Of a DNA stretch of 64,000 nt, positions 14,826 to 50,151 are shown piece by piece. The notes under the pieces are model-generated. The model saw nothing but the letters and a program-made list of their open reading frames with translations. It searched no databases and was not told where the DNA came from. The DNA is from Eledone cirrhosa. Taxonomy: Eukaryota. Both the position numbers and the translations under genes were made by a program. Numbering within the stretch: the stretch's first letter is position 1; every line of letters begins with the position of its first letter. The stretch covers positions 93,496,001 to 93,560,000 of the forward strand of contig OZ024740.1 in assembly GCA_964016885.1 (NCBI GenBank), given 5' to 3'.

Positions 14826-14868
<43 letters not shown>

Positions 14869-17800: not shown

Positions 17801-20800
17801 GAGTCCTCGTCTATGAATCCTATCTAAGTCAAGCACACAGATCACGAATTTGTGGTCCGTGTAGCTGACTATCTTGAATTGTGGACAGCCTATGCTAGAC
17901 CCATCTATTTCCCTACAAAATACTCTATCTAGATATGATCTGGATGACCCTATAAGTTTTGTGCAAGTCCACATTGGCACATTCGGGAAATCCAATCGGT
18001 ACCTGTCAGATAGTTCAAAACGCCTGAACAGGTGGTGAGGCTCTTGCACCATCCTCCCCTATCCGCTAATCCCACACAGTCCCAGCGTGCATCTAAGATC
18101 CCGTTCCAGTCGCCCACTAACACTAAAGAGCGGGATGTTCCAAGAAAGGTCTCCAGACGCCGGAAGAAATCAGGCCGCCCTGCTCCTGTCGGGGCATAGA
18201 CGGCCACTAGCCTGAAAGCTTGCCCGTCTCCGCTGGTCACGTCCAGCACCACCAGCTTACCCTCTGGGTTCAGGAAGATGGCCCGTATGGCGAGATCCAA
18301 ACCTCTCCGAAAAAGCACAGCAACTCCTCCCCCGATCCAGGACGGCTGGGAGATGCGTACACATCGTAGCCGCCGAAGATCGGTGCGAAGGCCCGTGCTT
18401 CGGAGATTCTGGTTTCGCTGATGGCCACTACATCTATGTTTAGTGACCTGAGGTCGTTGAGCAGGTGACCCTGCTTCCATGACGACCCCAAGCCACGCGC
18501 ATTTATGCTGCCTATTCTGAGTGGGGTCATGTTTAAAATAGAGTGGAAAAGTTGAGAAAGACCACTTACCGTACTTTTCGTAGAGGAGGGATGGTTTTTA
18601 CATCCCTTTTCACTTGATCGTCTGGTGAATGGACCGTTGAATCGTCCCTTCGGCTGGTCGTCGGCTCTTCTATGAGTATGTCCGAATATACTCTTCGATT
18701 GATAGTTCCACCTAGATCCCTGAAATCACCAACTGCGTTGGGGAATTTCGTTTTAATGTTTGTGTATTGTTTCTGTGCTATTTTTAGCAGTCTTATTTTA
18801 GTTGGCGTTTTGATTGGTGCTGGTATTATGTAGTCGTGTTGTGAAATGTCTGTGTGTTCAATTATGTAAGTCATTAGTTTCTTGTTGTGTGTATTTATTG
18901 CCGTGCATTTGTTTTTCTGGGGGTGTGGTGTGGTTCTGCTATTTTCTTGTCGTTGTTGCTGGGTGTGTGTGTTTTGTTGTTGTGTTTGCGATGTTGGTGC
19001 TTGTGGCGGTGGTGTTGAAGGTGTTGTTGTTGTTGTTGGCAGTGGGGTTGTCGCCGGTGGTGATGGTGGTGCTAGTGTGGGTTGTAATGGTGTTGCTGGT
19101 GTTGCTGCTCTGAGTCTCTTTGCAGTAGACTTTACGCTTTTCTCATTTTTTTCCTCCCTTTTCAAAGGCGACTATGCGCTGCTTCTGCGTTTGTGCCTTC
19201 TTACGACCATTTGCCATCCCTCTCCCACCTCACACTCCATGTCTGATTCTGTGAGGTCGGGGAGGTGTACCAGCTCCACTCTTTCACTTCTTGTTGTTGG
19301 TGATGTTTGCACTGCTGCTGCTGTTTTTGATTTCCTTGGCGTGGGTATGGGTGCCACGGACCTATCGTTCCTGGTTGCCGCTTGTCCTGTTGCTCGTAGC
19401 CGTGGAGTCGGTTTCGGAAGGAGGGGGGTTTTCTCCTTTCTCGGGGTCTTCTCGTTGCAGAAGGCCCTGAGGTGAGTCTTCGATCCACAGCGAAAGCATT
19501 TCGGGCGTTTGGCCTCAACACTTTTGGGCAGTTGAGTGCCGTTATCGAAGTCTATCACATCCGGGATAGCTTCGATGCACTCCTGGTTGGTTTAGATTAA
19601 CATCTCAATGGAGGTGCCGACCCAATCTTCTCTTACTTTTTTCTGTACTTGCAGTACAGTTGTTTTGTCCTCGATTCCGACGAGGACAGACGCGGCCAGC
19701 CAAGAAGGGGCCAACCCGTTTTGACGTGGGTCAGTTTGACCCTCACAATTTTTTGCCCGCAGTAGGAGGGCACCAACACCATTTCCTCGCTCTTTAGGGT
19801 CACTACGGATTGAGCCTTTGCCTCCAGGGGTGTGGCAAAAAGTACGTCTACGGTTGCATATTTTTTGCCTCGGGTGATTTGCGTTTTCCGCTGCCACACA
19901 GACCCCGAGGCTTTTTGTATTTGAGCCTCTGTGGCTCTTTCAACCCTACGGGATTTGGTACTTACTGTACGGTACGTGACCGTACAGTGCTGTTGGGTTT
20001 CGAAAAATGTTTCCGCTGCCTTGCAGATTGCTCGGTGTCCATTCTTTGTCACCATCTTCTTCGCTTCCTCTAATTCCTCATTTGTTATGAGGATTGTTTC
20101 CAGGTTCTTAGCAATACCTGCAAACGAGATTGGTTTTTCTTTGCTGCTGTTGTTGTTGTTGTCGTCAGAGCTGCTGTTACTTTTGTTGTTGCTGCAGGTA
20201 CTACGACTACTGACTCCGCCGCTGTTGCTGTGGTTGTTGTTGGTGTTGCTGCTGCTAATGCTGTTGTTGTTTATGCTGCTGTTGATGCTGTTGCGGCTGC
20301 TACTGTTGTTTTCATTGTCACGGTTGCTGTTGTTATTACGGCTGCTACTGCAATTATTCCTGACGTCAGACGAATGAAATGGGTTTTCGTATTTTCCGCA
20401 CACCTGTTTCGTCGTTGTCGTCGTCGTCGTGGAGAAATCTTGCACGCTTTGCACGAGACTTTTCTTTTCTGTCGTCGCTTGCGAAAGAGAAGGAAGGGAG
20501 AGAGACAATCTTCTCTCTGCTGTAGTGATGATTGAGGAAGAAGAAGATGGAATCAGTGGGAGTGACCTATGAAAATTCTTTTTCGTAGCCATTTTGTTTT
20601 TTTTGTTTAAATTAAATATTGGGCACAAACCCCAATAAGCAGTTATTTAACCCCGAAGAGCCAAATAACGGGCAGAGAGACATCCTCTCACGAGGAGGAG
20701 GGTGTTTTTGTCTACAAGTTCGTTAAAGTTTTAAACAATTTACAATTATTATAGCGTTCAAAATGTACAATACCTTACAGAGCCGAGCCTCCGTCAACCA

Positions 20801-20808
20801 TAGCATTC
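14826..20808 (-). mobile_element. Tx1/L1-clade LINE copy A1, full length, frameshifted
   Basis: (ATT)n tail 14826-14866; ORF2 relics 18530->15116 (GSINARGL, VYAPT, GDWN, LDQSKAFDRV, SVRQGCPLS); ORF1 relics 20592->18566 with CFRCGSKTHLRAFC knuckle; 5' end abuts (AAT)n. Confidence 0.95.
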
Positions 20809-20843
<35 letters not shown>

Positions 20844-21970
20844 GTAGAAGAAGAAGAAGAAGAGAACAATAGACCAGGGGATGTCCGAGGAATAAATAAC
20901 AACACGGAGGATGAGCAACCTTCATGTAAAATCCCTTCATAATACCTTCTTTAAGAAAACTGAATTTAGAGATCCACAGACATGGAACTGGTTAAAAAGA
21001 GGAGACCTTAAAAAGGCTACAGAAGGAATGCTAATGGCTGCGCAAGAGCAGACATTCAAAACGAAGTGGGTGAAACACCATATTTACAAGGAGGAAGCTA
21101 GCCCACTGTGTATGATCTGTGGAGAGAGAGAGGAGAGACTGGGGCTCACATTGTATCCAAGTGTAAACACCTAGCCCAGACTCACTATAAAGGCTGGAGA
21201 CATGATGTGATGGCAGGGTGATCCACTGGCACCTATGCAAAAGTAAACAATGTACCTAATTCTGAGAAGTGGTATGAGCATGAGCCAGAGTTGGTGATAG
21301 AAAACGATCAGGTGAAGGTGCTATGGGATTTTAGGATACAGACGGAAACTGGAACTCGATAGGCCTAATCTGGTGGTTTTGGACAAGGAAAAAGATCGTG
21401 CCTGATTGTAGATGTAGCCTACTCATTTGACACGAGAGTGCAAGAAAAGGAGAGGGAGAAAATTAACCGATACCAGGAATTAAAGTCGGAGGTAAAAAGG
21501 ATTTGGAACTGCCATGGAGTCAGAGTCGACCCGATTGTCATAGGCGCACTTGGTACTATCTCAAAGAGTGTCCAAGGATGGTTAAAGAAAGTTAATCCAG
21601 CCCTGCTTTTTGGAACACTTCAAAAGGAATGCTTGTTGGGAACAGCAAGAACCCTGCGATACGCCCTGAATATCTGAGGCTGCAGATAACGGCTTGATAT
21701 TCAACTAACTTTCCAGTTAAATAACTTTTTCTACTTTAGGCACAAGGCCAGCAATTACCCAGTGCATTACTGGTACTTTATTTTATCGACCCCGTAAGGA
21801 TGAAAGGCAAAGTCAACCTCGGCGGGATTTGAACTCAGATCGTAAAGGGACGTAACTATGTTGGAAAGCATGGTTTCTGACCCTCTACCGATACTGCCAA
21901 TCCACCGCCCAGTTAAATTTCCAGTTAAATAACATCAATGACTGAGACTCAAAGAACAATAATAATAATA
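20844..21970 (+). mobile_element. 5'-truncated R4/Dong-clade element with (AAT)n tail; SINE in its 3'UTR
   Basis: TEGMLMAAQEQ, CMICGE, EKEREKINRYQELK..PIVIGALGT; closely similar to 37551-38385; AAT repeats at both ends. Confidence 0.9.
21726..21910 (-). mobile_element. Full-length SINE with 16-bp target-site duplication
   Basis: TTTCCAGTTAAATAAC at 21710-21725 and 21918-21933; A-box and B-box (GAGTTCAAATCC) present. Confidence 0.92.
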
Positions 21971-22013: not shown

Positions 22014-25000
22014 AATAATAATAATTTATTTCATTTATTGGCCACAAGGGACGACACATAGTGGACAATACAAGAAACTGTGACAGTGGGGGTCTATATA
22101 TACAACTGTAAACAATATAAATAACAATAACAAAATAACAATAAGAATACAACGAGAATCATTCCCCGATGGGGGGATGACGACCCATGGCTCACTCAGG
22201 TACCCCACCAATCCTGAACGTTTCGATGTTTAGAGAGCACCCGGGAAGGGCACCCCTATCCTACTCAAATTCACCCACCTACAGGCGCATGATCAGAGTA
22301 GGCCCACTCATACGGGCCAATCTCGCCACATTCACCCACCTTTCAGCAAATGTACTGGGTGTTTGCAGCACTTCTCTCTCCACCTGCACCGTCATTTCCA
22401 AGTAAAACTTGAAAAAGGTGATGGGGGATTGGCCGAAGAGAAAAGTGTCTGTCTTCAGTCCTTTCAACCTGGTACACCATACAATCTCTTTCGCTACTCC
22501 CTGTGAAAGAGAAATTGCCTGCCCTTCGAGGCCAAAAGAAGGCGGCGGGTCGATCTATACTATAGACTCGGCTGTAAGCCGGATCCGTTCTACACGCAAC
22601 AGAAGCTGGTCGACATAACTCCACAAGTTAGTAATGACGGACACTGGACGTGTGCGTGAAGAACGGTTTCGTCGCTCTGTACTCATCTCGGGCAGGTCAG
22701 TCTGACAGCACTTCCGTGCCTGTAGTGTTTATCTCGAACCGGCAGTGCCTCCCGGTAGCACTGCAAAGCGAAGGATTTTTGGAAATTATCCATCGTCCAC
22801 GGCTCGAAAGTCCTCCGAAACAGACTGGTTAGTTCGACTTCGTCGACGCCCAGAGCGTCTCCGAGTGCGTCGTCGCAACATTCCAGATGCCAGTCACCTA
22901 GTCTCGCTCTTTTCTTGACCCAGGATTGCAGCTCAATCAAAGAGATGGGCTGCGGAAAGGGCCGTCTGACAAACGGCGGTCACATCTGTTCAGCGCGTGT
23001 CTGCACATCATTAGCCACGACATACCCAGCCTTTCACGTAGAGGGTGTTGGCAGCAGATGGACCACCTCAGCAACGGAACCTGACCCCTCCACAAATGTT
23101 TGTAGAGGAGCCGTTCCATGTTGGCGATGCGCGAACGGGGGCAAGGGACGACGGTCAGGCGGTAGTTGATGACGGACGCGATGTACGCATTCGCGACCTC
23201 TGCCCGACCTTTCAGTGAGAGCTTCCTTGCAGCCCATTTCAGGGTTAGACTGGCTACCTGGCCCGTCACCTCGTCCCAATTCTTATCCACCTGAAGGTCT
23301 GACCCACACCAAACCCCGAGCAACTTTACCGGTCCAGCGCCTAACGACGCTGTTGGACGGCATGGAGATGCCTCTCCAGGTGCCGTGTTACAAGCCCACC
23401 GACATTTCCGGGTGAAGTTTTGCACCTGTCAACCTTTCATATTCCTACAATACGTTGCCGACCACCTCGATTTATGAAGGGTCCAACACCATCATGGTGA
23501 CGTCGTCCGCATAAGCCGACACAGCGTTTCCACGTCCTGGTTCGAGCTTGCTGCCCTGCAACAACTCCAGCTTCCGCAGTAAGGGCTCGAGAGTCAATAC
23601 GTACAGAAGACAGCAGGGAGGTCATCCTTGACGGACCGATCTGGAGATCTGAAACGGTTGCGAGAGGTGGCTATTAACTTTAACCACAGCAGATGCCGCT
23701 GTGCATTGCAGCGATATTGCTTCTGAAGACGGGCCTGAACCTGCTGCCTTGAAGATAGCTTCCAGTTACCGATGGTCGACCCTATCGAATGATTTCGATT
23801 GATCTAAATTGATCAGAGCCCCACCGAAGCCAGGTTTACACCCTACCACCTCTATGATGTATCGCATCAGATAGTGGTTGTCGTGTATGAACCTGGTCAG
23901 GATTGCGCAAGTTTCTGCCTCAGCAAACAAATCCTCGACGACAAACGCCAACCTATTCAGTAACACCGTGGCCAGAATCTTAAACTCTGTGTTGAGCACA
24001 GTTATGGGTCTGAAATTGTCTAAGGTGTCCTTCTTGTTCTTGTCTTTCCTTATCAGCATCACTACGCCCCGGCTCACAGTACTGGGAATACTCCAGTTCT
24101 GCTACCAGTTGCAGTAGAGCGCTACGAGGAGATCGTAGAACAAGTCTGGCAAATTTACGTAAAGCTCGTAACGCAGACCTTCCAAACCGTGTGAGTTGCG
24201 CCTCACGCAGCCGACAAAGGCATCCTGAATCTAGGCTGAAGCGATCGGCCATTCGCAGCGCTCACTGTAGGCCGTCGAGAGTTCCGGCAAGCCATCGAGT
24301 TAGGGACTGAAGTCCGCCACCGTCTCTGAAAACTACCGAGCAAAATGTTGGCGAAAGGCCTCACACATCTGCTTGGAATCGTTTGTGTCTGTCTCGTTCC
24401 GTCAAAGACTGAATCGTAGTTTTATTACCACGCTGCGTCTCTGCCACCCGGGCCAATCGAACAACTTTGGTTCCCTTGTTTCTCAGAGCACGCGCCTAAG
24501 CACTGACAATGCAAGAGACGTGTTTCTCATTGAAGAAATGATCTAATACCTTTCTCATCGCTAGCACGTCAGTTGCAATGTCACTACAAATAGAATCGTC
24601 TAACTTATCTACCAACTCGCTCTCCTTTCTATTTTTCTCTAACTCTACTTCTTTTCTAAACCCTATCGACATTACTCTAATCACTGTTTTGAGAGTCCCC
24701 CACCATCTACTGTTGACGACTCCCCCTGTCAACTTTTTCTTAAGTAAATTCTTGACCCGGTCCATGTAAGCCTTACGTGCTGGAAATGGCATGTCCAGCC
24801 CCCAGTAACCAGGTCGTAACCTACGCATCTTATCTAGGTCGACCTTACAGACAACAAACGTGTGATCTCTATAGCCGACCGTTTTAAAACGTGGACAGCT
24901 TACACTATCTGTCTATTTTCGTTATGAATATCCTGTCTATATAAGATTAAGATGACCCTATGCGGTCGAACCAGGACCAGGTTCACACTAGGGAAATCTA

Positions 25001-27933
25001 GTCGGTACCTGTCAGACAGTTGGAACTGACTGATCAGGTACTACAGGCTTTTGCACACCCCTGCTCCTATCGGATACTCCCACACAGTCCCAGCGTGCGT
25101 CTAAGATGCAGTTCCAGTCTCCCGCTAACAGTAAAGTGCGGAACGTACCCAGAAATGCTTCCAGGCATCTAAAAAAGTCCGGCCTTCCTGCCCCAGTAGG
25201 GGCGTAGACGGCCACCCGTCTAAAGGCACCACCTTTGTTATTGTTCATGTCCAGGACTACCAACTTACCGTCCGGGTCCCTGATGATCGACCTTACCTCG
25301 AGATCCAGGCCTTTCCTAAACACCACTGCCACCCCACCCACATTGCCGGGCGACTAACAGTTGCGAAGATTTGATAGTCTTCGAAAATGGGGACTAGATA
25401 GGCTCGTGTCGGAAATCCTGGTCTCGCTGACGGCAATTACATTCATTTCTACAGGCTTGAGGTCGTTAAGCAGGTGACCCTGCTTCCAGGACGATCCCAG
25501 GCCTCGAACATTTAGACTTCCTACTCTTAATACGGCCATGTTGGCAGACTAAAAGAGAGAGGAAAGGTTTACTTACCCTCCGGGCTCTTGTGAAGGTCGG
25601 GTGGTTTGACCTCCATAGTTGGTGGAGTTTCTTTTGGGAACCCCTTTAAAAGTATTGAAGGGGATTTCACGTTGGGGGTTCCCAGGTCTCGAGGAAAGCT
25701 GTCTCGTATCTCTTTGCATTCGAGCGACATTTGCCCCTGAACAAATCTTCCGGCACGTTAAATGTGCCCGATTTAATAATACCCACCTCTTTTTGAATCT
25801 CTTTTATTTCGTGCTACGAGGGCCATGATGTCCTTGTTGGCCCTTCTGACGATTATGAAGTTGTGTATGTTTTGTTGGTGTGATTTTATTTGCTTGCGTG
25901 GCTTGGTGGTGATGGTTTTGATAGTGTTGTTTCGGTTGTGTCTGTGTTTGTTGTGAGTGCAGTGTCTGTGGTTTCAGATGTACGTGTGTATATTTGTTCT
26001 TCCGTCTGTTTAGGTTGTTTGTGTTTGGGGCATTGTGTTGATGGTGATGGTGATGGTGGTGTTGATGTTGGTGTTGTCGGGCAGATGTTTGAGTGAGCGG
26101 TATGTACATTTTTTTTCGTGGATGTTTTTGTATTTTGTGGATTTTTTTTACGTTTCCTTGTTTGTATTTTGGGGGATTTGGTTTTACCTCCTCGTCACTA
26201 CTGGTAGATGAATGGTCTGCGTCTGCAAGTGTGTCCGTGTCTGTGTGTGTGTTTATGTTTTTATTGGTGTGTGTATTTTCATCGGGAGGGGGGAGTTTCC
26301 TCGACCTCCCTCCCCTGAGTGTTCAATGCTGGTGGTGGTGTTACTATTAATGTTCTTACTGGTGGTGGTTTCGCCGGTGCTGGTGTTGGTTGTGGTCTTC
26401 GCACCGGCGTCGGCAGCAGTGGAGCACATCGACCCCTTCCATCTTTCAGCACTTGAGGGCAGAAGGCCCGCAAATGGACTTTTTCCCCACAAACAAAACA
26501 ATGCGGCCTTTTCCCCGCGGCATAATGTGATTTACCGTCCTGCTCTGTAGACGGATGTGGTCCGGGATTGTTTTGATATTCTCGGGCCTGATCTGGAGAA
26601 GTATCTTTAGGTCAACCCCGGACCAGTCCTCTCCGGCAGTTCTTGTTACATCTATCGGGACGTTATATGTCCCTTCCGCAATCACACATCCTAGAAGCCA
26701 CCACGTGTCAAGTCCTTGTGGGATTCTGGGAATGCGGAGACGGGCTGTCATTTTTCCTATGTGCGAAGGGTACATTATTACCTTGCTGGTTTTGCAAAGT
26801 GTCATAGCATGTTTGATAGTGAGGGCTTCTGACTTAAACGGGACCGAAATTCTGCCGTACTGTCTGCCCCTCGCTATGTATGAGGTGTCGACCCTGATGC
26901 ACCTCCACGCGACTTCGACATCTGATTGTGGAATTAAAGCTGCCCTCTTGGTTTGTGCTGAGATGCATCTGTAATATACCGCTGTCCTCTATTGCTTCAA
27001 TAGCTTCTACCGAGACAGTTAAGTTGGTACAAGTTTGCTCTTGCTTGATGCGTTTCCTGACCTGGGCCAAATTTTCATCTTTGTTCGAGAGGCCCATGAT
27101 GAAGCGCGGCCTCTTTTTGGCTGCTGCCGCAGCGAAAATGTTCTTGTTGTCCTTGTTGCTGTTGGTGTCGTCGTTGTTATTGTGGGTGTTGTTGGACTTA
27201 TCACTGTTGCAGTTGGTTATATCTTTGATGCCGACTTTGTTGTTGTTATTGGCACAGTTGTTATTGTTGCTATTGGAGCTGTCACTGTTTATATTCTGGT
27301 TAGTGGTGTTAATTTCATTGTTGTTTTCTTTGATATTGTTGTTGCTGCTATTGTTGTTATTGTTGTTGTTGTTGTTGTTGTGGTTGTCACTGTTGTTGAT
27401 ATTGTTTCCTTTGTTGTCGTTCTTTCTGTTTTTGGTGTTGTTATCATTATTGCAGTTGTTGATTTTTCTGTCGTTGTGGCTGGTGCTTTTGTCGTTCTTG
27501 TTCACAACTGTTGTTTTGTTTACTGTTTTTGGTAATGTCGCTGATGCGGTTGTTGTCATTTTTCTTCATATTATTATTATTGCTGTTGTTGGCGACATTG
27601 CCTGATGTGTTGTTACATTTAAAATTGATGCGGGAGGGGCAGAGTTATTAGCCTCAAAGATCGACACGCTGTCGGCAGACAGCAAGCTAAAAAATGGGCG
27701 TGGCTCCGCCATATTTTATTTTTTAAATTCTTTTATAAAAACTTTGTTTTAAACACACACAGCTTAAATATTTGGGCCAACAGGCCCGAATATTATGGGG
27801 AGTCCTTTTTGGGGGACAAAGACTAAAGCTTATTTCCCGTTTGAAGCAAAAATATTAATGACAAACGTATTTCAAAGAGTAGAAAAATCTTACTTAGGAG
27901 CTCACCATAGTACATCCATTCGCTTCAACGAAC
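22014..27933 (-). mobile_element. Tx1/L1-clade LINE copy D (B-related), full length, decayed
   Basis: ORF1 starts MAEPRP at 27712, Asn-rich N-terminus, ends ~25569; ORF2 relics 25539->22279 (MAVLRVGSLNVRGL..GPTLIMRL); AAT repeats at both ends. Confidence 0.95.
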
Positions 27934-27964
<31 letters not shown>

Positions 27965-38385: not shown

Positions 38386-38387
38386 TA

Positions 38388-38456: not shown

Positions 38457-38490
<34 letters not shown>

Positions 38491-41400
38491 CTTTCTTTAT
38501 TAACCACAAGGGTGTACATAAAATAGACATTAACGACAGTACAGGACAATACAGGACGGTAAACATGGGCATTTCTGCGTGTAAAAAACATGAAACAGAG
38601 GATGAAATAATAGAACAATGATAACATTCCCCAATAGTGGGGAGACTTCCGAGGGACATTCGTTGTGAAAGCCCATTAAAAAGCCACAGTGACGCTGACC
38701 ACCAGGGCAAATGCCCTCTCCCAGTTTTCCACCTTTAATTTACAGACACATACTCAGAGTAGGCTTATTCACTCGGGCCATTCTTTCCTCTCTCACCCAT
38801 CTTTCAACAAAATGCTGGGAATAGAGCACTTCCCTTTCTACCCTGATTTTCCTTTTCCAATGAAATTTGAAAAAGTTAATCAGGGCATCACCGAAGAGGT
38901 AAGTGCTCGACTTTCGCCATGGCCACCAGGCAGATAAAAACTGCCTGCCCTTTCCGGCTAAAGGAAGAGGGCGGGGCAATCCTCACGATAGACTCAGCTA
39001 ATAGCTGGATGCGTCCTACACGCGACAGCATGTGTTCGACATAAGCCCACAAGTAAGCAATGCTCGGACACTGGACGAGTGCGTGCAGGATGGTTTCGTC
39101 GCCCTGCGCGCATTTCGGACATGCCCGGCTGACTGGACCTCCATGCCTGTAGAGTATATCCCGAACTGGCAAAGCTCATCGGTAGCACTGCCAGGTCGGG
39201 GATTTCTGGAATATGTCCATAGGCCACTGCCCGAAAGTTCTTCCGAAGAGATTGGCTAATTGATTTTCGTCGACGCCTAGAGTTTCCCAAAGTACGTCGT
39301 CGCTCTTCCCCTCCACTAATCCTCTATAGAACGCCAATGTGCAGTTTCCACCGATCACATTGCCCGATTGGTCGAGGGCTGTGAGCGCCTGAAGACATTC
39401 CAGTCTCCAAGCGCTCCCTCACTGTCCTCGCTTGACCCAGGACAGCAGTTCCGTGAAGGAGACGAGCTGAGCCAAGACATGTCTAGCAAACGGCGACCAC
39501 ACCTGAACACCGTCGAGGAAAAGGTGGAGATGTCGTAGCCTGAGCGCGTTGTCTGCGCATCATCAGCCACGGCATTCCCTGTCCTCCACGTAACGGGTGT
39601 TGACAGCAGATAGACCGCCTGACCATCGGAGCGCGTCCCTTCCACAAAAAGCGAAACAGCAAACGCTTCAGTGCAGTCAGGCGGGGCTTCGGACAAGGTA
39701 CGACGGTCAGGCGGTAGTATATGACGGACGTGATATACGTGTTAGCCACATCTGTTCGACCTTTCAGGGATAGCTTCCTCTCGGTCCATTTCTGGGTGTG
39801 AGAAGCCACCCTGCTCGTCACTTCGTCTCAGTTTTTTGTCCGTCTGGAGATACGGACCGAACCAGACACAGAGCAATTAACGGTCCGTCCGTCCAGCGCC
39901 CAACGACGCTGTTGGACGGCATGGAGCTGGCTCTCCAGGTGCCGAGCTGCAGGCCCACTGACTTTTCATGGTATATATTGCTCCTGTCACCGCTACGTAT
40001 TCTCATAGTGTAGTGCCGATCGCCTCGATGTGTTTGGCGTTCGACACCACTACTGTGACATCGTCCGCATATGCTGACACGGATCTTCCGCATCCTAGTT
40101 CCCCCTCCCCCTCAACGTTTCCTGTCTGTGCAGTAATGGCTCGAGAGTCAATAGGTACAAGAGGGACGAGAGGGGACATCCATGGCTGACCGAGCGCATG
40201 ATGTTGAACGGTTCCGAAAGGTGACTGTTCACTCTCACCACAGAGCAGATGTCGCTGTGCATGGCAGCGGTCCAGCCTCTGAAGACGGGCCCAAAGCCAG
40301 CATCCCTCAGGACTGCCGCTGGGTAACGATGGTCGACCCTATCGAAAGCTTTCGACTGATCTAAATTGATCAAGGAGCCACCCGTGCCAGGTTCCCTAGC
40401 CACCCTCTCTACGATGTATCGCATGAGGTCGAGGTTATCGTGGATTGATCTGTCGGGAACGACGCATGTCTGCGCCTCTACCACCAGACTACCATCGACA
40501 AGCGCCAACCTCTTTGCTAGCACCTTGGCCAAAATCTTGAACACTGTGTTTAGCAGAGTTATGGGCGTAAAATGATCTATGTTATCCCCCTTGTTCGGAT
40601 CCTTTCTCAGCAGCGCTACAGTTCCAAGGTTCACAGAGCTGGGAATTCTCCTGTTCTGTTGCCAGTTGCAGTAGACGTCCGCCAAGAGTCCTCCGAACAA
40701 GTCTGGCATCTGTACGTAAAGTTCATAGGGCAGACCATCCAAACCAGGCGATTTACCCGTTGTGCATCCAGTCATTACCTCCCCTACTTCAGCGGTTGCT
40801 ATCGGCTTTTCGCAACACTCCACCACAGTGGCCAAGTCCCGCGGCAGACCGTCGAGTTGACACTAAGGTCCATCCCTCGATCTTCTGCCCCCGAACAGCT
40901 GAGCGAAGTGTCGCTGAAAAGCTTCACACATTTGCCCGGGATCGAGTAGCATGTGCCCGTCGTGGTCCACCAAAGACCGGATCGTGGCTTTGTTGTCACG
41001 ATGCGACTCCGCCACTCGGGCCCATTGTACGGCTTTCGTCCCCTCGTGTCTGAGAGCACGCACCCTTGCTCTGACAACGCAGCCTTCGTGCTTTGCATTG
41101 AAGAATTGGTCAAGGGCCAATTTCGGCGCAAGTACGTCGGTCGCGATGCATTTGCTAAGCGCCTCGTCTAATTTTCTAACTATTTCTCCCTCTGCTCTAT
41201 TTTTCTCTATTGCTAAAGCCTTACTAAACCTAATTGACTCTATTCTAATTGCTCTTTTTAGAGCAAGCCACCACTTGCTGTTGACGATGGTCCCCGTCAA
41301 CGCCCTCTTAACTAGTTCGCTAATCCGGTCTCTGTAGACCTTTCGCGCTGGTAAGGATGCGTTTAGCTTCCTGTAGCCGGGTCCTCATGTATGAGGCCTA

Positions 41401-44400
41401 TCTAATTCAAGCACACAGATCACAAATTTGTGGTCCGTGTAGCTTACTATCTTATATTGTGGACAGCCTTTTCTAGACCTATCTATTTCGCTACAAAATA
41501 CTCTATCTAGATATGATCTGGATGACCCTACGTGATTTGTCCAAGTCCACATTGGCACATTCGGGATATACAATCGGTACCCGTCAGACAGTTCAAAACG
41601 CCTGAGCTGGTTGGTGAGGTTCATGCATCCTCCCCCCTATCCGCTAATCCCACACAGTCCCAGCGTGCATCTAAGATCCCGTTCCAGTCGCCCACTAAAG
41701 ATCGGGACGTTCCAAGAAAGGTCTCCAGATGCTGGAAGAAATCAGGCCGCCCTGCTCCTCTCGGGGCATAGACGGCCACTAGCCTGAAAGCTTGTCCCTC
41801 TCCGCTGGTTACGTCTAGCACCACCAACTTACCTTCTGGGTCCAGGAAGATGGCCCGTATGGCGAGATCCAAACCTCTCCGAAAAAGCAGAAACTTCACT
41901 CACGCCCCTGATCCCGGACGGCTGGGAGATGAGTACACAACGTAGCCGCCGAAGATCGGTGCGAAGGCCCGTGCTTCGGTACCGATTGTATTTCCCGAAT
42001 GTTTCGGAGATTCTGGTCTCGCTGATGGCCACTACATCTTTGTTTAGTGACCTGAGGTATTTGAGCAGGTGGCCCTGCTTCCATTATGACCCCAAGCCAC
42101 GCGCATTTATGCTGCCTATTCTGAGTGAGGTCATGTTGAAATGGAGTGGAAATGTTGGGAAAAGACCACTTACCTTACTTCACGTAGAGGATGGATGGTT
42201 TGTCCTTTCTTTTCACTGCTTGTGGCCTCCTCCGGAAGGATGTCCTTATTAATCCTCCTGGAGAGTGTTTGTCCGAAGTCTCCGATGTCTTTGGGGAACT
42301 TTTGTTTTAGTGTCGTGTAGGTTTTCAGTGTGAGGCGAGTGATTTGTATGTGTGGATGTGGTGTGGACATTTGGGTTGTTGTGTAGTCTATTTATGTCAT
42401 GCTGGTGTTGTGTTGCATGTAGTGTAATCATTGGTTGATGTTCAAATTTAATTGTTTCTACTTTAGGCACAAGGCCAGCAATTAACCAGTGTATTACTGG
42501 TACTTTATTTTATCGATCCCGTAAGGATGAAAGGCAAAGTTAACCTCGGTGGGATTTGAACTCAGAATAGCAAGGGCCGTAACTCTATGTGTCATAACAT
42601 GGCGTCCGACTCTCTACTAATACTGCCAATTCAAATTTAATGCTGTCTAGTGTGTATTGTTTTGGTGGTTTTGTTTTGTTTGCGTTTGTTGTGGGTTTGT
42701 TTATGTTACGCTTTTTGGTGACTTTTGTGGTGTTTGTATCGGTAGTGTTGGGGTTAATGATGGTGATGGTGTTGGTGTTTGTGGGGATGAGGTTGGTGAT
42801 GCTGGTGTGGATGGTGGCATATCTGTCCTAACTTTTTTGTTTGATAATTTATTTATTTCGCTTTGTATTTTGTTTTTGGAGGGGGAAGGAAGAGAATTTT
42901 TTTCTTTTTTGGTTTCATTTTTTCTTTTTTCCTGATACCGTTTCCCACTCTTCGTCGTCACAATCTATCTCCAGTTGTGATAGACCGGGGAGTGGAAAAT
43001 CCTCCACAGGCGTTGGTTTTGGTTGTGGCGTGGTGGATGGTGTACGCGCTGGTGCCAGTTCTGTTGCTGGGGTTTGTTGCTGTTACAGTTGCTTCTGTTG
43101 TTGCTGCTATAGCTGTTGTTTCCATTTCTGCTGCTGGTGGTGTTGATGGTTGAGGTCATGGGGTGGGTATGAGAGGTGGCCTCAACCTTTTAACCTGAGG
43201 GCAGAAAGCCCTTAGGTAGGTTGCTTAACCACAAACGACACACCTAGGCCTTCTGCCCTCGACGATTACGCTGAGGTGGCTGCCGTCACTGAGGTCTATA
43301 ACCTCGGGGATCTCCTCAATGCTTTTATGGTCTGCTTGGATCAGGTGCTCCATCCCAGATCCGGAGCAGTTCTCCTGCTTTTCTTTCGCTATTTTGATTA
43401 TCTTGGTGTTGGTCTCGATGCCGGCGAGGAAGGCACCATTAGCCAGGGATTTCGAGGGCCGGTGGCACGTGGGTCACCCTGATCTTCACCAGTCTCTGGC
43501 CACAATAGCTTAGGACGAGTGTGAAGTCGTCACTTCTTAATGGGGCCATGGAATGTTCTCTGGCCTCCTGTGGTTTTTCAAAGAACACGTCCACGGTTCC
43601 ATATTTCTGCCCACGTCTGATGTGGGTTTTTTCTGCCCACACATGCGATTTGGGACTCGGATGCCCGTTCCACTCGGCGCGATGTTATGTTAATTGTCCG
43701 ATAAGACTCGGTGCATAGGCGACGATGCTCCATTTTATTAGGTGTGTGTGTCTGTGGGGGGGGGGGGGGGGTGACCTTGTACCCATCTTTCTTTACCATT
43801 CTTTTGGCTTCTTCTAACTCCGCCTGAGTTATCTACCTGGATCGCTTCGCACGTTTTTGCTACTCTGGCAAAACTCAGGGTAGTTTTCTTAATTTCATTG
43901 TTGCTGTTGTTGTTATCGTTATGTTTGTTATTGTTAATTTTAGTTTCAGTTGTGGTGGTGGTGGCGTCAGTGGTGTTCGGTGTTGAAGAGTTCATTTTGC
44001 TTGAATTCATTTCGATATCACGAGTTAATTTATTTTTTTCTTTTGTTTCTGTTGTCGCTGTGGTGGTGGTGGCGGGGGTTGTCGCTTTGGTGGCGGTGGT
44101 GGGGTGGGGGTGGCGGCTTTAACACCTGCAGTCATTGGTAATGGCGGGAAATTTTAAATATTGAGTCAAATTTAAAATATTGCTACTGCTTATATATTTA
44201 GTGTTGGCAAACGTAGTAATATTTACAATGGTGGTGTCGGTGTGAGGTGTTAGTTTGTGAGGAAGGTGTGAATCTGAGTCCGCCATGATTTTTCAAAGAA
44301 CATTTTTTTTTTTGTTTGATGATTAAAAAAAGTTTAAATTTTGGGCCCAATGCCCCAATATTTTTGATTGTCCTTTTCAGAAATCAATGTGTGTGCACTT

Positions 44401-44506
44401 ATATACAGTTAACAATAACAATTTTCCATAAATGGCAATTTTAAACAACTGAAAATAACAAACATTTGCGGAGCTCACGATGATACGATTTACTACGTAG
44501 GTCGCC
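38457..44506 (-). mobile_element. Tx1/L1-clade LINE copy C: A-type ORF2/3'UTR with a divergent ORF1/5'UTR, decayed
   Basis: Tail 38457-38489; ORF2 relics ~42134->38740 closely match A1; ORF1 from ATG 44286 matches A1 only at protein level (RRVERASESQI, RGQKYGTVDVFF). Confidence 0.93.
42451..42630 (-). mobile_element. SINE inserted in ORF1 of copy C, with target-site duplication
   Basis: TTCAAATTTAA at 42441-42451 and 42630-42640. Confidence 0.92.
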
Positions 44507-44541
<35 letters not shown>

Positions 44542-44791
44542 TTTCATTTATTGGCCACAAGGGCCGACATATAGGGGACAACACAATAGACAGGGACAGT
44601 GGGGGTTTACATAGAGATCGAGTAAGTATAAATAACAAAAAACAAAATAACAATAAAAATACAACAATGAAAGTTCCCCAATAAGAGGGATCACCACCCA
44701 GGGTTGACTCAAGCACCCCACCAGTCCTGAGCCACCCGACGCTCCTAGGGCACCCGGGAAGGGCACCCCTCTCCTTCTCGAATTCACCAGC

Positions 44792-47700
44792 CTACAGGCG
44801 CATGATCAGAGTAGGCCCACTCACACGGGCCATTCTCGCCACATTCACCCACCTTTCAGTAAATGTACTGGGGGGCAGCACTTCTCTCTCCACCCTCACC
44901 TTCCTTTCCAAGTGAAACTTGAAGAAGTTGATGAGGGATTGGCCGAAGAGAAAAGTGTCTGTCTTCAGTCCTTTCAACCTGGTCCACCATGCAACCTCTT
45001 TCGCTACTGCCACCAGGCAGAGGAAAATTGCCTGCCCTTCCTGACCAAAAGAAGGCGGCGGGTCAATCTTCACTATGGACTCGGACGATAGCCGGATCCG
45101 TTCTACACGCGACAATAGCTGTTCGACATAACCCCACAAGTCAGCAATGCACGGACACTGGACGAGTGCGTGCAGAACGGTTTCGTCGCTCTGCGCGCAT
45201 CTCGGGCAGGTTCGTCTGACAGCACTTCCGTGCCTGTAGAGTTTATCCCGAACCGGCAGCGCCCCCCGGTAGCACTGCCAAGCGAGGGATTTCTGGAAGT
45301 TATCCATCGTCCCCGGCTCGAAAGTCCTCCGGAACATACTGGTCAGTTCTACTTCGTTGACGCCCAGAGCCTCTCCTAGTACGTCATCGCACTTGCCCTC
45401 CACTAATCCTCTATAGAAATCTTGAGTGGAAGTTCCACTGACCGCATTGCCCACCTTGCAGAGTGCAGTGAGCGCCTGGCAACATTCCAGATGCCAGTCG
45501 CCCAGTCTCGGTCTCTTCTTGACCCAGGACTGCAGCTCAGTCAAAGAGATGAGCTGCGGAAAGGCCCGTCTAACAAACGGCGACCACACCTGTTCACCGT
45601 TTAGGCAAAATATCTGGAGATGTCGCAGCCTCAGCGCATGTCTGCGCATCATTAGCCACGGCATGCCCAGCCCTCCACGAAGAGGGTGCTGGCAGCAGAT
45701 GGACCGCCTCACCAACGGGACCCGTCCCCTCCACAAAAATTTGAAAAGGAGCCGTTCCAAATTGGCGAGGCGTGGACGGGGGCAAGGCACGACGGTCAGG
45801 CGGTAGTAGATGACGGACGCGATGTACGCGTTCGCCACCTCCGCCCGCCCTTTCAGTGATAGCTTTCTCTCAGCCCATTTCTGGGTGAGGTTGGCTATCC
45901 TGCTCGTCACCTCGTCCCAATTCTTATCCACCTGGAGGTCTGGTCCGAACCAAACCCCGAGCAACTTTACCGGTCCGTCTGTCCAGCGCCCAACGACGCT
46001 GTTGGACGGCATGGACTTGCCTCTCCAGGTGCCGAGCTGCAAGCCCACCGACTTTTCCGGGTTAAGTTTTGCTCCCGTCAACCTTTCATATTCCTCCAAA
46101 TGGGTGCGGATCACCTCGACTTCCGAGGTGTCCGACACCATCACGGTGATGTCGTCCGCATAAGCGGACGCAGCCTTTCTACGTCCCGGTTCGAGCGGGA
46201 TGCCCTGCAACAACTCCAGCTTCCGCAGTAGAGGCTCAAGAGTCAATACGTACAGAAGTGAGGAGAGAGGGCACCCTTGACGGACCGATCGAGAGATCTG
46301 AAACGGTTCCGAGAGGTGGCCATTAACTTTGACCACCGAGCGGATGCCGCTGTACATTGCAGCGATCCAGCTTCTGAAGACGGGGCCGAAGCCAGCCGCC
46401 TCGAGGACAGCCTCCAAGTACCGATGGTCGACCCTATCGAATGCTTTCGATTGATCTAAATTGATCAGAGCCCCACCGAAGCCAGGTTTGCACCCAACCC
46501 TCTCTATGATGTATCGCATGAGGTGGAGGTTGTCGTGTATGGACCTGGTCGGGATTGCGCAAGTTTGCGCCTCCCCAACCAAATCTTTGACGACAAGCGC
46601 CAACCTTTTCGCTAACACCTTGGCCAAAATCTTAAACTCTGTGTTGAGCAGGGTTATGGGCCTGAAATTATCTAGTGTGTCCCTCTTGTTCTCGTCTTTC
46701 CTTATCAGCGTCACTACGCCACGGCTCACAGAACTGGGAATGCTCCCGTTCTGCTGCCAGTTGCAGTAGAGCGCTTCGAGGAGATCGGAGAACAAGTCTG
46801 GCATATTTACGTAAAGCTCGTAGGGCAGACCATCCAAACCGGGTGACTTGCGACTCGAGCAGCCGACAAGGGCGTCCTGAATTTCGGCTGATGTTATCGG
46901 CTCTTCGCAGCGCTCAGCGTCGGCCGTCGAGAGGCGTGGCAAGCCGTCGAGGTAGGGACTGAAGTCCGCCGCCGTGTCCGACTCACCCATCCTCCCGAAC
47001 AATCGAGCAAAGTGCTGGCGAAAGGCCTCACACATCTGCTTGGAATCGCTCAGTTCGTGTCCATCTCGATCCGTCAAAGACCGAATTGTGGTTTTATTTC
47101 CACGCTGCGTCTCTGCAAAGCGAGCCCATCGGGCAGCTTTGGTTCCCTCGTTCCTCAGAGCACGCGCCTTAGCTCTGACAATGCAACCTTCGTGTTTCGC
47201 ATTGAAGAAATGGTCTAGTGCCATTCTCGCCGCTAGCACGTCTGTTGCAATGCCACTACAAATAACCTCGTCTAACTTAGCTATCAGCCCCTCCTCCTTT
47301 CTATTTTTCTCTATTGCTACTTCTTTGCTAAATCCTATCGAGGTTGCTCTAATCTCTCTTTTGAGTGCCCCCCACCACCTGTTGTTGACAACCCCCCCTG
47401 TCAACTTTTGCTTAACTAAGTTGTTGACCCGGTCCCTGTAAGCTTTACGTGCCGGAAACGACATGTTTAGCTTCCAGTAGCTAGGTCCTAACCTACGTGT
47501 CTTATCTAGGTCGACCATACAGATCACAAGCTTGTGATCTGAATAGGCAACCGTTTTAAAATGTGGACATCCTACACTATTTCTATCTCTTTTCCTAATG
47601 AAAATCCTATCTATGTACGATCTAGATGACCCTATGCGATTGGTCCAGGTCCATACTGGCGCATTAGGGAAATCTAGTCGGTACCTGTCAGACAGTTGAA

Positions 47701-48211
47701 ACTGGCTGATCAGGTACTTGAGGCTTTTGCACCCCCCGCTCCTATCAGATACTCCCACACAATCCCAGCGTGCTTCTAAGATGCCATTCCAATCCCCTAT
47801 TAACAGTAAAGGGCGAGACGTAAGCAGAAAGTTTTCCAGGCGCCTAAAGAAGTCCGGCCGACCGGCCCCAGTAGGGGCGTAGACGGCCACCAGTCTAAAG
47901 GCACCACCTTCGCTATTGCTCACGTCCAGGACCACCAACTTTCCGTCAGGATCCCGGAAGATTGACCTTACCTCGAGATCCAGACATTTCCTAAACAGCA
48001 CAGCCACTCCACCTCCCATTCCCGGCCGACTGACAGATGCAAAGATCTGATAATCGTCGAAAATCGGCGCCAGTGCGCGTGTGTCGGAAATTCTGGTCTC
48101 GCTGATCGCAATTACATCCATTCCTAGTGACCTGAGGTCGTTGAGCAAGTGACCTTGCTTCCAGGGCGACCCCAGGCCACGAACATTTAAACTTCCTACT
48201 CTTATGGCCAT
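44792..48211 (-). CDS. ORF2 protein, 1139 aa: APE endonuclease + reverse transcriptase + C-terminal CCHC finger
   Basis: APE motifs SLNVRGL, ISETR, VYAPT, GDWN, SYIDRIF, SDHK; RT motifs KSPGLDGLPYE, FRPITLLNTEFKILAKVLAKRL, LDQSKAFDRVDH, VRQGCPLS, YADD; CPRC..ETVLHALVQC. Confidence 0.97.
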   Translation of the reverse strand: MAIRVGSLNVRGLGSPWKQGHLLNDLRSLGMDVIAISETRISDTRALAPIFDDYQIFASVSRPGMGGGVAVLFRKCLDLEVRSIFRDPDGKLVVLDVSNSEGGAFRLVAVYAPTGAGRPDFFRRLENFLLTSRPLLLIGDWNGILEARWDCVGVSDRSGGCKSLKYLISQFQLSDRYRLDFPNAPVWTWTNRIGSSRSYIDRIFIRKRDRNSVGCPHFKTVAYSDHKLVICMVDLDKTRRLGPSYWKLNMSFPARKAYRDRVNNLVKQKLTGGVVNNRWWGALKREIRATSIGFSKEVAIEKNRKEEGLIAKLDEVICSGIATDVLAARMALDHFFNAKHEGCIVRAKARALRNEGTKAARWARFAETQRGNKTTIRSLTDRDGHELSDSKQMCEAFRQHFARLFGRMGESDTAADFSPYLDGLPRLSTADAERCEEPITSAEIQDALVGCSSRKSPGLDGLPYELYVNMPDLFSDLLEALYCNWQQNGSIPSSVSRGVVTLIRKDENKRDTLDNFRPITLLNTEFKILAKVLAKRLALVVKDLVGEAQTCAIPTRSIHDNLHLMRYIIERVGCKPGFGGALINLDQSKAFDRVDHRYLEAVLEAAGFGPVFRSWIAAMYSGIRSVVKVNGHLSEPFQISRSVRQGCPLSSLLYVLTLEPLLRKLELLQGIPLEPGRRKAASAYADDITVMVSDTSEVEVIRTHLEEYERLTGAKLNPEKSVGLQLGTWRGKSMPSNSVVGRWTDGPVKLLGVWFGPDLQVDKNWDEVTSRIANLTQKWAERKLSLKGRAEVANAYIASVIYYRLTVVPCPRPRLANLERLLFKFLWRGRVPLVRRSICCQHPLRGGLGMPWLMMRRHALRLRHLQIFCLNGEQVWSPFVRRAFPQLISLTELQSWVKKRPRLGDWHLECCQALTALCKVGNAVSGTSTQDFYRGLVEGKCDDVLGEALGVNEVELTSMFRRTFEPGTMDNFQKSLAWQCYRGALPVRDKLYRHGSAVRRTCPRCAQSDETVLHALVQCPCIADLWGYVEQLLSRVERIRLSSESIVKIDPPPSFGQEGQAIFLCLVAVAKEVAWWTRLKGLKTDTFLFGQSLINFFKFHLERKVRVEREVLPPSTFTERWVNVARMARVSGPTLIMRL

Positions 48212-48240
48212 GCTGGCAGGATGAATGGGAGAGGAAAGGT

Positions 48241-50151
48241 TTACTTACCTTCCGGGGTCTTGTGAAGGTCGGGTGGTTCGACCTCCATGGTTTGTGGGGT
48301 TTCTTTTGGGAACCCCTTTAATAGTCTTGACGTGGGTTTTACGTTCGGGGTTCCCACATCCCGAGGAAAGCTCTTTCGAATTTCTTTGTATGAAGCGAGC
48401 GACATTCGCATCAGAAGCAAATTATCTGGTACGCGAAATGTGCTCGCTTCAAATGTTTCCCCGTCTTTTTCGATGTTTGTGCTTCGTGCTACATGGGCCA
48501 TCAATTCCTTGTTGGCCCTTCTGGCAAGCACGAAGTTTTTATAGTTTTGTTGCTCGGGTTTTATTTGTTCGTGTGATTGTGGTGGTGATAGCTTTGTTAG
48601 TGTTGTTTCTATTGTGTCTGCGTTTGTTGTGGGTGGGGTGTCTGTAGTTTCTGATGTTTGTGTGTCTATTTGTTCTTGTGTCTGTTTAGCTTGTTTGCGT
48701 TTGGGGGATTGTGGTGGTTGTGTTGGTGATGCTGTGGGGAAAATGTTTGTGTGGGTGGTGTGTGTATTTTTTTTTGTGGGGGTGTTTGTGCTTTGTGGAT
48801 TTCTTTTTTTTTTGTGTTTTGTTTTTTGTATTTTGGGGGACTTTGGTTTTCCCTCATCTTCACTGCTGGAGGATGAGGGGTCTGTGGCTGTGAGCGTGTT
48901 TGTGTCTGAGTGAGTGTTTATGTTCTTGTTCGTGTGTGTATTTTGGGGGGGAGGGGGAATGGGAGAGCTTTCCTCGTTTCCCCCCTGGGTGTGCAATTTT
49001 GGTGGTTCCATTGTTGACGGTGTTGCTGGTGGTCCTTGTCCCGGCGTCGCCAGCAGTGGAATCTTTCGACCCCTTGCGCTTTTCGGCAGTTGAGGGCAGA
49101 AGGCTCGCAAGTGTGTCGTTTCCCCACAAAGGAAACAATGCGGCCTTTTGCCCTCAGTCATTATATGCAACACCCTCCCGTTTTGGAGGCGGATGTGGTC
49201 CGGGATTGTTTTTACGTTTTCGGGTCTGATTTGGAGCAGTATCTCCAGATCAACCCCGGACCAGTCGTCCCTGGCAGTTCTCGTTGCCTCTACCGGGACT
49301 GTATCCGTTCCTTCCACGATTACGCAACCCAGGAGCCACCACATATCAAGTCCTGGTGGAATCCTGGGAATGCGCACACGTGCTATTCGTTTTCCCATGT
49401 GGGAGGGGTACATTATGACCTTGCTGGTTTTGCAAGGGGTCATTGAATGCTTCACAGCGAGGGCTTCAGACTTGAACAGCACCGAAACGGTGCCGTATTG
49501 CCTGCCCCTCTCTATGAAGTCTGTGTCCTCTCTGATGTATTTCAGTGCGGCTTCTATGTCAGCTTGGGCGATTATCGCTGCCCTCTTTGTCTCTACTGAG
49601 ATGCATCTGAAATGCACCGTTCTTTTTTCCACTGCCTCAATGGCTTCTGCCGGGACAGTTAAGTTTGCCCAGGTCTGCTCTTGATTTATGATTTTCCAGG
49701 CCTGGGCCAACTTTTCCTCTCTGTTGGTTAAGTCGATGCTGTAGCATGGTCTCCTTTTAGCCGCTGCCACAGCAGCGAAAGTGTTCTTGTTGGTGTTGTC
49801 ACTGTTGTTGTTCTTGTTGGTGTTGCTGCTGCTATTGCTGTTGTTGTTCTCCCCTGTGTCGTGGTTACCTTCTGTGCTGTTGGCCTTGTTGGTGCTGCTG
49901 CTGTCGCTACTATTACTCTCTGTGCTGTTCGTTTTGTTGGTGCTCTCGCTATTACCACCTTCTGCGCTCTTCGGCTTGTTGGTGTTGGTGTTGTCGCTGT
50001 TACCACCTTCCGCGCCGCTCGGCCCGTTGGTGCTGGCACTGTCGCTGCTCACATTCGTGCTGGTGGCGCTCCTCGCCTCACCTCTCCTCTCAACGCTCAA
50101 GTCGCCGTTGCACGACAGCAGACCCGCCTCTAGGGGGCGTGGCTCCGCCAT
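48241..50151 (-). CDS. ORF1 protein, 636 aa: low-complexity N-terminus, RRM-like core, CCHC zinc knuckle, low-complexity C-terminus
   Basis: CFLCGETTHLRAFC (CX2CX4HX4C); RGRQYGTVSVLF RNP-like segment; lies upstream of ORF2. Confidence 0.92.
   Translation of the reverse strand: MAEPRPLEAGLLSCNGDLSVERRGEARSATSTNVSSDSASTNGPSGAEGGNSDNTNTNKPKSAEGGNSESTNKTNSTESNSSDSSSTNKANSTEGNHDTGENNNSNSSSNTNKNNNSDNTNKNTFAAVAAAKRRPCYSIDLTNREEKLAQAWKIINQEQTWANLTVPAEAIEAVEKRTVHFRCISVETKRAAIIAQADIEAALKYIREDTDFIERGRQYGTVSVLFKSEALAVKHSMTPCKTSKVIMYPSHMGKRIARVRIPRIPPGLDMWWLLGCVIVEGTDTVPVEATRTARDDWSGVDLEILLQIRPENVKTIPDHIRLQNGRVLHIMTEGKRPHCFLCGETTHLRAFCPQLPKSARGRKIPLLATPGQGPPATPSTMEPPKLHTQGGNEESSPIPPPPQNTHTNKNINTHSDTNTLTATDPSSSSSEDEGKPKSPKIQKTKHKKKRNPQSTNTPTKKNTHTTHTNIFPTASPTQPPQSPKRKQAKQTQEQIDTQTSETTDTPPTTNADTIETTLTKLSPPQSHEQIKPEQQNYKNFVLARRANKELMAHVARSTNIEKDGETFEASTFRVPDNLLLMRMSLASYKEIRKSFPRDVGTPNVKPTSRLLKGFPKETPQTMEVEPPDLHKTPEGK

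Follow-up and report, generated by a model that had tools for sequence, protein, structure and literature searches.

The closest described systems to the elements considered here are the L1/Tx1 long interspersed elements (LINEs) of the Tx1 clade, such as Kibi, Koshi and the L1-Tx1 elements of Octopus vulgaris. Kibi has been reported to prefer (TC)n and Koshi (TTC)n (PMC4494074), and 13 recently active L1-Tx1 families were described from O. vulgaris (PMC13282606). The window analysed here, a stretch of 64,000 nucleotides of Eledone cirrhosa (contig OZ024740.1, positions 93,496,001 to 93,560,000), contains from ~14 to 54 kb L1/Tx1-type LINEs piled head to tail on the minus strand. These are like the known systems in having two open reading frames (ORFs), a CCHC knuckle in ORF1, and an ORF2 with apurinic endonuclease (APE), reverse transcriptase (RT) and zinc finger, and they may also resemble them in a preference for a microsatellite, here (ATT)n. 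They differ in that their clade carries at ORF stops a motif, GGTAAGT, that matches the U2-type 5' splice site (5'SS) consensus G/GTRAGT recognised by U1, whereas none of 33 distant L1/Tx1 junctions has this donor consensus.

U1 sites occur in HIV-1 and papillomavirus, and splice signals are also known from retroelements. The nearest parallel is the Ty1/copia element EVD, in which the structural gene ends in a donor that is bound by U1 and could yield excess structural protein (PMC8892269); in the present elements U1 binding is proposed, and the donor likewise lies near the end of the structural ORF. EVD, however, is a long terminal repeat (LTR) element for which an intron, an acceptor and a terminator have been shown, whereas the present element is a LINE, and no shared acceptor was found for it. 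Splice signals inside a LINE RNA are also known from human L1 and its spliced integrated retrotransposed elements (SpIREs), but the donors described there lie in the 5' untranslated region (5'UTR), shift over time and lead to a dead end (PMC5860796), whereas the present motif lies at the ORF1 stop and has been kept over saturated divergence. Work on telescripting and the retained 5'SS motif has dealt with a consensus 5'SS in unspliced RNA, the state proposed here; there the motif was depleted from intron-less mRNAs (PMC4380460), whereas here it is kept in an intron-less RNA. Termination-reinitiation in SART1 (UAAUG) and mammalian L1 provides another cis-element at a LINE ORF1/ORF2 border (PMC5972666), but SART1 has a stop-start overlap, whereas here the ORF1 stop and the ORF2 ATG are apart in every motif-bearing lineage and the ORF2 end bears the motif too. 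A literature search of titles and the starts of abstracts, with most subscription journals and Repbase outside its scope, returned no description of a donor kept at LINE stop codons, and the available parts of PMC9341512 and PMC5203782 contain nothing on the motif. U1 sites and splicing in retroelements (EVD, human L1) and the effects of a retained 5'SS are known already; the donor kept at LINE stops is what appears to be new.

Five elements in the window, here called A1, A3, B, C and D, and one ORF1 fragment have the motif or a variant of it at the end of ORF1, as follows (the slash marks the predicted exon-intron border).

48243..48249, minus strand: GGTAAGT at the ORF1 end of B, read GAA G/GT AAG TAA; predicted exon end at 48249 and intron start at 48248
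25571..25577, minus strand: GGTAAGT at the ORF1 end of D, read GAG G/GT AAG TAA
18564..18570, minus strand: GGTAAGT at the ORF1 end of A1, read CG/G TAA GT
42168..42174, minus strand: GGTAAGT at the ORF1 end of C, read AG/G TAA GT; the 14-mer AGTAAGGTAAGTGG is the same in the distant relative L083
31886..31892, minus strand: GGTAACT, with one change, in the broken A3, whose ORF2 start has decayed to ATA too
14021..14027, minus strand: GGTAAGT at the 3' end of a B/D-type fragment that holds ORF1 only, with an (ATT)n tract directly after
48212..48242, minus strand: spacer between the motif and the ORF2 ATG in B, 31 nt, 74% pyrimidine; it contains ACCTTTCC, able to pair with GGAAGGT

A preliminary description of the stretch had given the five GGTAAGT sites and the A3 variant as lying at the ORF1 stop in different codon registers. 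All were found there, on the minus strand, and three-frame translation gave ORF1 ends of ...RKVR* in A1 and A3 (CGG-TAA-CT in the latter), ...REVR* in C and ...PEGK* in B and D, so that the stop register of A/C does differ from that of B/D. The fragment at 14021 has the B register and is followed by its (ATT)n tract after GGTAAGTA. That the motif spans divergent families stood only in part: A/C and B/D are 67-73% identical in nucleotides over ORF2 and the 3'UTR (B and D 86%, A1 and C 90%), but these are the only two lineages in the window and the flanks of their motifs are partly alike. The number of matches across the window was within chance, with 12 found, 7.2 expected and at least 12 in 8 of 100 shuffles. 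The window alone proves little because it holds only two lineages, and the case beyond chance rests on relatives from outside it. Five of the GGTAAGT matches are on the plus strand; they occupy the homologous position in A-type copies, close to the 3' end of ORF2, and a second sense-strand match lies inside ORF2 of D (25263) and of C (41827). In B, A1 and L083 the 7-mer occurs once only in the body of ORF1 and ORF2, at the end of ORF1.

Some smaller observations concern the same sites. The end of the fragment (14001-14027, minus strand) at GGTAAGTA falls inside the ORF1 stop, as TA/A, and (ATT)n follows; in this one case the sequence could have arisen as a copy of an RNA with its 3' end at the motif, from priming internally on two bases, or through a deletion that came later. 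A contig variant of the B family lacks one base right before the motif (48250; depth 1181/20910 in X1), which would shift the register again; the variant may also come from the way D-like copies align. Donor-like GTGAG or GTAAG words were also seen near the 5' ends of B (50315-50335), D (~27890-27910), A1 (~20770-20785) and L083 (~10205).

Scanning of genome contigs brought up a relative outside the window, which stands in tandem arrays; the contigs that carry these are filed with a bacterial metagenome-assembled genome (MAG) and were taken as animal DNA. The arrays (L081-L124 of G001) are long and head-to-tail, with mostly intact LINE units of 6.4-6.8 kb and 71 ORF2 N-terminal matches; their contigs are likely to be host DNA in a bacterial bin, and contig C16 of G002 looks like the same kind of contamination. 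The relative has 41% identity in ORF2, its ORF1 is 26% identical to that of B over 224 amino acids (aa), and its ORF1 ends GAG TAA GGTAAGT, 7 nt upstream of the ORF2 ATG. The 7-mer was present in 57/57 distinct array junction copies, one with an extra A before it, although these, like the 47 ORF2-end copies considered below, are from tandem arrays of one record and far from independent, the 57 amounting to about one lineage. The base that follows it varies (G in 35, C in 15, T in 7). Of 149 fourfold sites compared for B and the relative, 35 were identical, which is the chance level and indicates saturation, and a quick tree placed the two ~1.6 amino-acid changes per site apart in ORF2. C and L083, a pair from the two sides of this divide, share 14 identical bases at the motif. 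An old, broken copy of this relative's family in a second record (L167) reads GAG TAG GA GGTAAGT AAAGA ATG, in which the stop codon, the spacing and the flank all differ.

The motif is therefore seen in four arrangements relative to the ORF1 stop, at -5 (B/D), -1 (A/C), +4 (the relative) and +6 (L167), and it follows that neither the protein nor the stop codon accounts for it. Its background frequency is low, at 12 of 9622 stop triplets (0.12%). The earlier proposal of conservation at the nucleotide level was thus strengthened by recurrence of the 7-mer ~1.6 changes per site away and in two further stop arrangements, and selection on the nucleotide motif is highly likely. Extension to related families was more mixed: the motif is present in the relative and in L167 but is absent from L114 and from all 33 distant L1/Tx1 ORF1 stops (23-32% identity), a set in which the stops were chosen by script and a few may be wrong. 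The 33 come from 38 distant junctions, after exclusion of L016, L048 and L068, where the ORF1 stop was not clear, and of L038 and L074, near-copies of L039 and L057; none of these five has GTRAGT in the stretch printed. L023, one of the 33, has a donor-like GGG/GTGAGTAA at its stop. Two ORF1 homologs seen as protein only, P0300 (30% identical) and P0250 (32%, from Argonauta hians), have GK and GKS as their last residues where the alignment puts the motif, in agreement with GGT AAG T. Searches of viral contigs, of genome contigs (with P0004 and the ORF2 of B as queries) and of plasmids, and an ORF1 word search, gave no further lineage with DNA, and for families P0003, P0004/5, P0008, P0013/14, P0015, P0250 and P0300 no DNA was found from which to read the junction. 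In L154 the junction is deleted.

A second site was found at the other end of the coding region. In the sister clade GTRAGTA lies at or just after the ORF2 stop in 47/47 array copies, with changing flanks and a +3 position that varies (A in 24, G in 23), and for conservation it ranks in the top two 6-column windows of the 3'UTR alignment. GTRAGT is present in L155, L168 and L114 also, the 3'UTR of the last otherwise aligning poorly. In most array copies the site is 17 nt past a TAG, in L114 it is 43 nt past the stop and out of frame, and in L106, L111, L175 and L176 it includes the ORF2 stop itself (CGG-TAA-GT, AGG-TAA-GT and TGG-TGA-GT), which repeats the arrangement seen at the A/C ORF1 stop. 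A weak counterpart in the window is the following.

44782..44787, minus strand: GTGAAT just past the ORF2 stop of B

D has GTGAAT likewise at 22269-22274, and the A types have no counterpart. Candidate donors were ranked by a crude pairing score that follows the U1-pairing consensus. Among 21 distant elements with a long ORF2, GTRAGT was the best site within 60 nt of the stop in none, and four scored at least 8. The 3' end of the sister clade was fixed via a 13-nt target-site duplication around L175 and lies at ~+660 to +730; 7 of the 8 sister-clade 3'UTRs examined have an internal AATAAA at +420 to +471, downstream of the second site, that has to be read through before this end. The four window 3'UTRs have a single terminal AATAAA, no internal one and no GTRAGT second site, an association of second site with internal AATAAA that amounts to a correlation across two clades, no more. 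Sense-strand words resembling the 5' end of U1 were noted in B (ATACTTACTC, 44620-44630, minus strand) and in the 3'UTR of L155 (TACTTACCTG); they could pair with the donor motif and are not common to other lineages.

The reading placed first, at a probability somewhat short of even, is that the motif is a 5'SS consensus which is bound by U1 mostly without splicing and keeps the LINE RNA full-length. Selection would keep the consensus so that the U1 small nuclear ribonucleoprotein (snRNP) binds the nascent intron-less RNA, with the RNA that retrotransposes remaining unspliced and splicing from the site being rare or a dead end. From its site at the ORF1 end, which in the sister clade is joined by one at the ORF2 end, U1 would set where the RNA is cleaved and polyadenylated by holding off internal polyadenylation signals, giving a full-length RNA with a proper 3' end; ORF ends would be favoured as the first places without protein constraint. 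The motif, its position, its survival over saturated divergence in four arrangements, its copy at the ORF2 end and the AATAAA downstream of that copy are observed directly; binding by U1, an effect on 3'-end formation and the reason for the position are inferred. In human cells a retained 5'SS motif alters 3' cleavage, polyadenylation and export (PMC4380460). Recognition by U1 in some form, with or without splicing to an ORF1-only mRNA, is probable, and the pattern suggests that these intron-less LINEs borrow part of the splicing machinery. The preliminary description had also offered an ORF1-only splice and a U1 site guarding against premature polyadenylation, which are the two readings ranked highest here. 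Binding without much splicing is ranked first because a fusion of the two ORFs fails and because no shared acceptor, no spliced copy and no listed joint at the donor was found. It fits the second site well and the first loosely, the AATAAA sequences nearby being at chance level.

Several observations weigh against it. An AATAAA lies 313-335 nt upstream of the motif in all four window elements, which is what chance gives in A-rich ORF1s (P 0.50-0.66), and this cluster was rejected as a signal; the ORF2 of B contains a single AATAAA, and those of A1, C and L083 contain none. The quick tree nests L114 inside the clade; its ORF1 stop lacks the motif although an AATAAA occurs 137 nt upstream, so the motif is dispensable or was replaced. 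In the second record only one of four junctions is intact (L167), with GATAAGT in L158, GGTAGGA in L177 and a deletion in L160, all four being broken copies. The A/G wobble at the second site may be the R of a splice site or may also reflect TAA/TGA, since this triplet falls in frame with ORF2, where L106, L111, L175 and L176 use it as their actual stop; only in L114 is it out of frame. A 5'SS motif in human cells also promotes retention of RNA in the nucleus and its decay (PMC4380460), fates that one would expect a LINE to escape. Protection from the human silencing hub (HUSH) was considered and rejected as a lead, as the protection given by introns was reported not to be tied to splicing or to the splicing machinery being recruited (PMC7619638).

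The strongest competitor, unlikely but not greatly behind, is that the motif is a true alternative donor, from which the end of ORF1 is spliced to an acceptor downstream (in the 3'UTR, the next tandem unit or the flank), removing ORF2 and giving an ORF1-only mRNA and excess ORF1 protein (ORF1p); the second donor would then give an ORF1+ORF2 mRNA with a trimmed 3'UTR. The spliced short GAG RNA of EVD is a precedent (PMC8892269). No donor is farther from a stop codon than 5 nt upstream or 43 nt downstream, which is within the 50-55 nt limit below which a downstream junction spares an RNA from nonsense-mediated decay (NMD; PMC5378362), and the free phase of the donor is compatible with such splicing. 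The 3'UTRs of A1, C, D, the relative and L114 contain acceptor-like sites, but B has no AG after the U-rich tract of its 3'UTR, and a scan of ORF2 and the 3'UTR with a crude score found no acceptor-like site aligned across all lineages. Spliced L1 RNAs retrotranspose in humans (PMC5860796), yet no spliced copy was seen among the 57 array copies at the ORF1-end site or the 47 at the ORF2-end site, even though an RNA spliced at the latter would still encode both proteins. Contigs from four of five sequencing runs contain ~2100 joints, and none of the 15 listed resumes at 48249; contig depth was not taken as expression. A deep ORF1 contig in X4 was rejected as a splice branch as it stops at 48263 and not at the donor. 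An extended version, in which an NMD-safe donor punctuates each ORF end to give three RNAs (ORF1-only, ORF1+ORF2 and the unspliced genome), is slightly less likely again.

Splicing of ORF1 to ORF2, which had been put forward earlier together with a pyrimidine-rich spacer, did not survive. The donor phase differs between lineages, the spacer ranges from 7 to 34 nt, no AG is present in the spacers of A1, A3, C and the relative, and the AG of B and D puts ORF2 out of frame. Pyrimidine-rich spacers are a feature of the window elements (31-34 nt, 71-74% pyrimidine) but not of the relative, whose spacer is the 7-nt GGGATTG; with no AG in A/C and the pyrimidine spacer missing in the relative, a shared acceptor there was rejected.

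A translation signal, either a termination context or a termination-reinitiation element bringing ribosomes to the ORF2 ATG, is improbable. The motif always hugs the stop and holds it in ORF1 of A/C and in ORF2 of L106, L111, L175 and L176. An in-frame TGA a few codons past the ORF1 stop overlaps the ORF2 ATG as TGATG, only in the relative (L083, 12431-12436) and in L114 (2001-2006), and coupled termination-reinitiation makes the ORF2 product of SART1 and was proposed for L1 (PMC5972666). Against this, the distance from motif to stop varies from -5 to +6 and that from motif to ORF2 ATG from 7 to 34 nt, and the exact match to the U1 consensus would be a coincidence. The reinitiation signal suggested in the preliminary description is weakened because the same motif stands at the ORF2 stop of the sister clade, where no ORF follows, in L114 out of frame and 43 nt past the stop.

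Descent combined with chance, by which the motif would be an inherited stop-codon neighbourhood without its own function, is more doubtful still. It is in keeping with the two window lineages and their partly similar flanks, with a window count not above chance, with the absence of the motif from L114 and from three of the four broken second-record copies, and with TAA supplying three of the seven letters in the A/C register. Silent sites, however, are saturated, yet the 7-mer (14 nt between C and L083) has been kept through register shifts; a background of 0.12% per stop gives by our arithmetic a ~0.3% chance of one hit in two outside lineages; and a second GTRAGT stands at the other stop. 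That the motif is one arm of an RNA stem and not a U1 site is very improbable: GGARGGT can pair with ACCTTTCC in the spacers of B and D, with an A-U to G-U change in D, and the motif is likewise folded into stems in L098 and L167, but the partner varies among lineages with no complement at a shared sense-strand place, and in a consensus fold of the window's five junctions the motif stays mostly unpaired, with an unfavourable covariation term (+4.84), so that a conserved RNA structure at the junction was left unsupported.

If binding of U1 to the unspliced RNA, or splicing to an ORF1-only mRNA, is correct, the clade would show a LINE using U1 on purpose, for a full-length RNA in the one case and for an ORF1-only mRNA in the other, which bears on how LINEs escape early polyadenylation and set the ratio of ORF1p to ORF2 protein (ORF2p). 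Three RNAs would mean copia-like subgenomic splicing in a non-LTR element, with the ORF1p:ORF2p ratio set by splicing and not by reinitiation alone.

The elements that carry the motif in the window, and the features belonging to them, are as follows.

44540..50361, minus strand: the full-length element B, in which both ORFs are open; its terminal AATAAA (44547-44552) is followed by (ATT)n
48241..50151, minus strand: the 636-aa ORF1 of B (counted from its first ATG), with a CCHC knuckle and a T/K/P-rich C-terminal half
44792..48211, minus strand: ORF2 of B, 1139 aa, with Exo_endo_phos, RVT_1 and zf-RVT
14867..20808, minus strand: the full-length element A1, disrupted by stops and frameshifts
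22026..27934, minus strand: element D, full length, broken
38490..44506, minus strand: element C, full length, broken, with an insert resembling a short interspersed element (SINE) at 42425-42633
30929..34181, minus strand: element A3, a 5' part with internal deletions
14021..14827, minus strand: ORF1 3' fragment of B/D type, between the A1 tail and an (ATT)n tract
50198..50225 (B), 44336-44362 (C), 27767-27794 (D), 20617-20638 (A1) and 33990-34012 (A3), minus strand: 5'UTR hairpin near the ORF1 ATG, of AATATT-GGG...CCC-AATATT type

Among the five named elements only B is intact, and several further pieces in the pile are 5'-truncated. Sequencing-run contigs show B to be a member of a high-copy family. 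Its ORF2 matched PF03372 (endonuclease), PF00078 (RT) and PF13966 (C-terminal zinc finger), all above the cut-off. The ORF1 knuckle, C-x2-C-x4-H-x4-C, was read from the sequence and an alignment; a Pfam scan of the B ORF1 gave no hit, and zf-CCHC was above the cut-off in the relative L098 only and below it in others. Among the 20 ORF1 homologs looked up, the only ones with a name are from Argonauta hians, Octopus sinensis and O. bimaculoides; they share 25-32% identity with B. The elements have no LTRs, occur as 5'-truncated copies and end in AATAAA with a simple-repeat tail or a target-site duplication. They are ordinary L1/Tx1-type LINEs as judged by these features; the quick tree covered unnamed relatives only. 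The 5'UTR hairpin is retained in B, C, D, A1 and A3 although the 5'UTRs are otherwise unlike.

Each window element ends in AATAAA and (ATT)n, and all five full-length 5' ends, in this one window, come after an (ATT)n tract; because of these tails and preceding tracts the window LINEs are inferred to insert into (ATT)n. The tracts (13900-53900, minus strand) also carry 3' pieces of a SINE-like repeat that likewise end in (ATT)n. No Rfam family was found in the window or in 10 array loci, and no tRNA gene was found, so insertion into arrays of small nuclear RNA (snRNA), spliced-leader RNA (SL-RNA) or tRNA genes is unsupported. Other occupants of the window include a decayed, older 3' piece of B/D type at 8137-10050 (minus strand) with its own AATAAA and (ATT)n tail, and a plus-strand RT-bearing element at 36148-36888, 26% identical to the B ORF2, along with a second related piece (20856-21816 and 37549-38458 being listed with it). 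The sequence GGCCTYGTGCC occurs at the 3' ends of the relative and L114 (L083 10125-10140, L114 and L175) and in the window SINE-like repeat (50390-50401, minus strand), and is possibly a tail shared by LINE and SINE partners.

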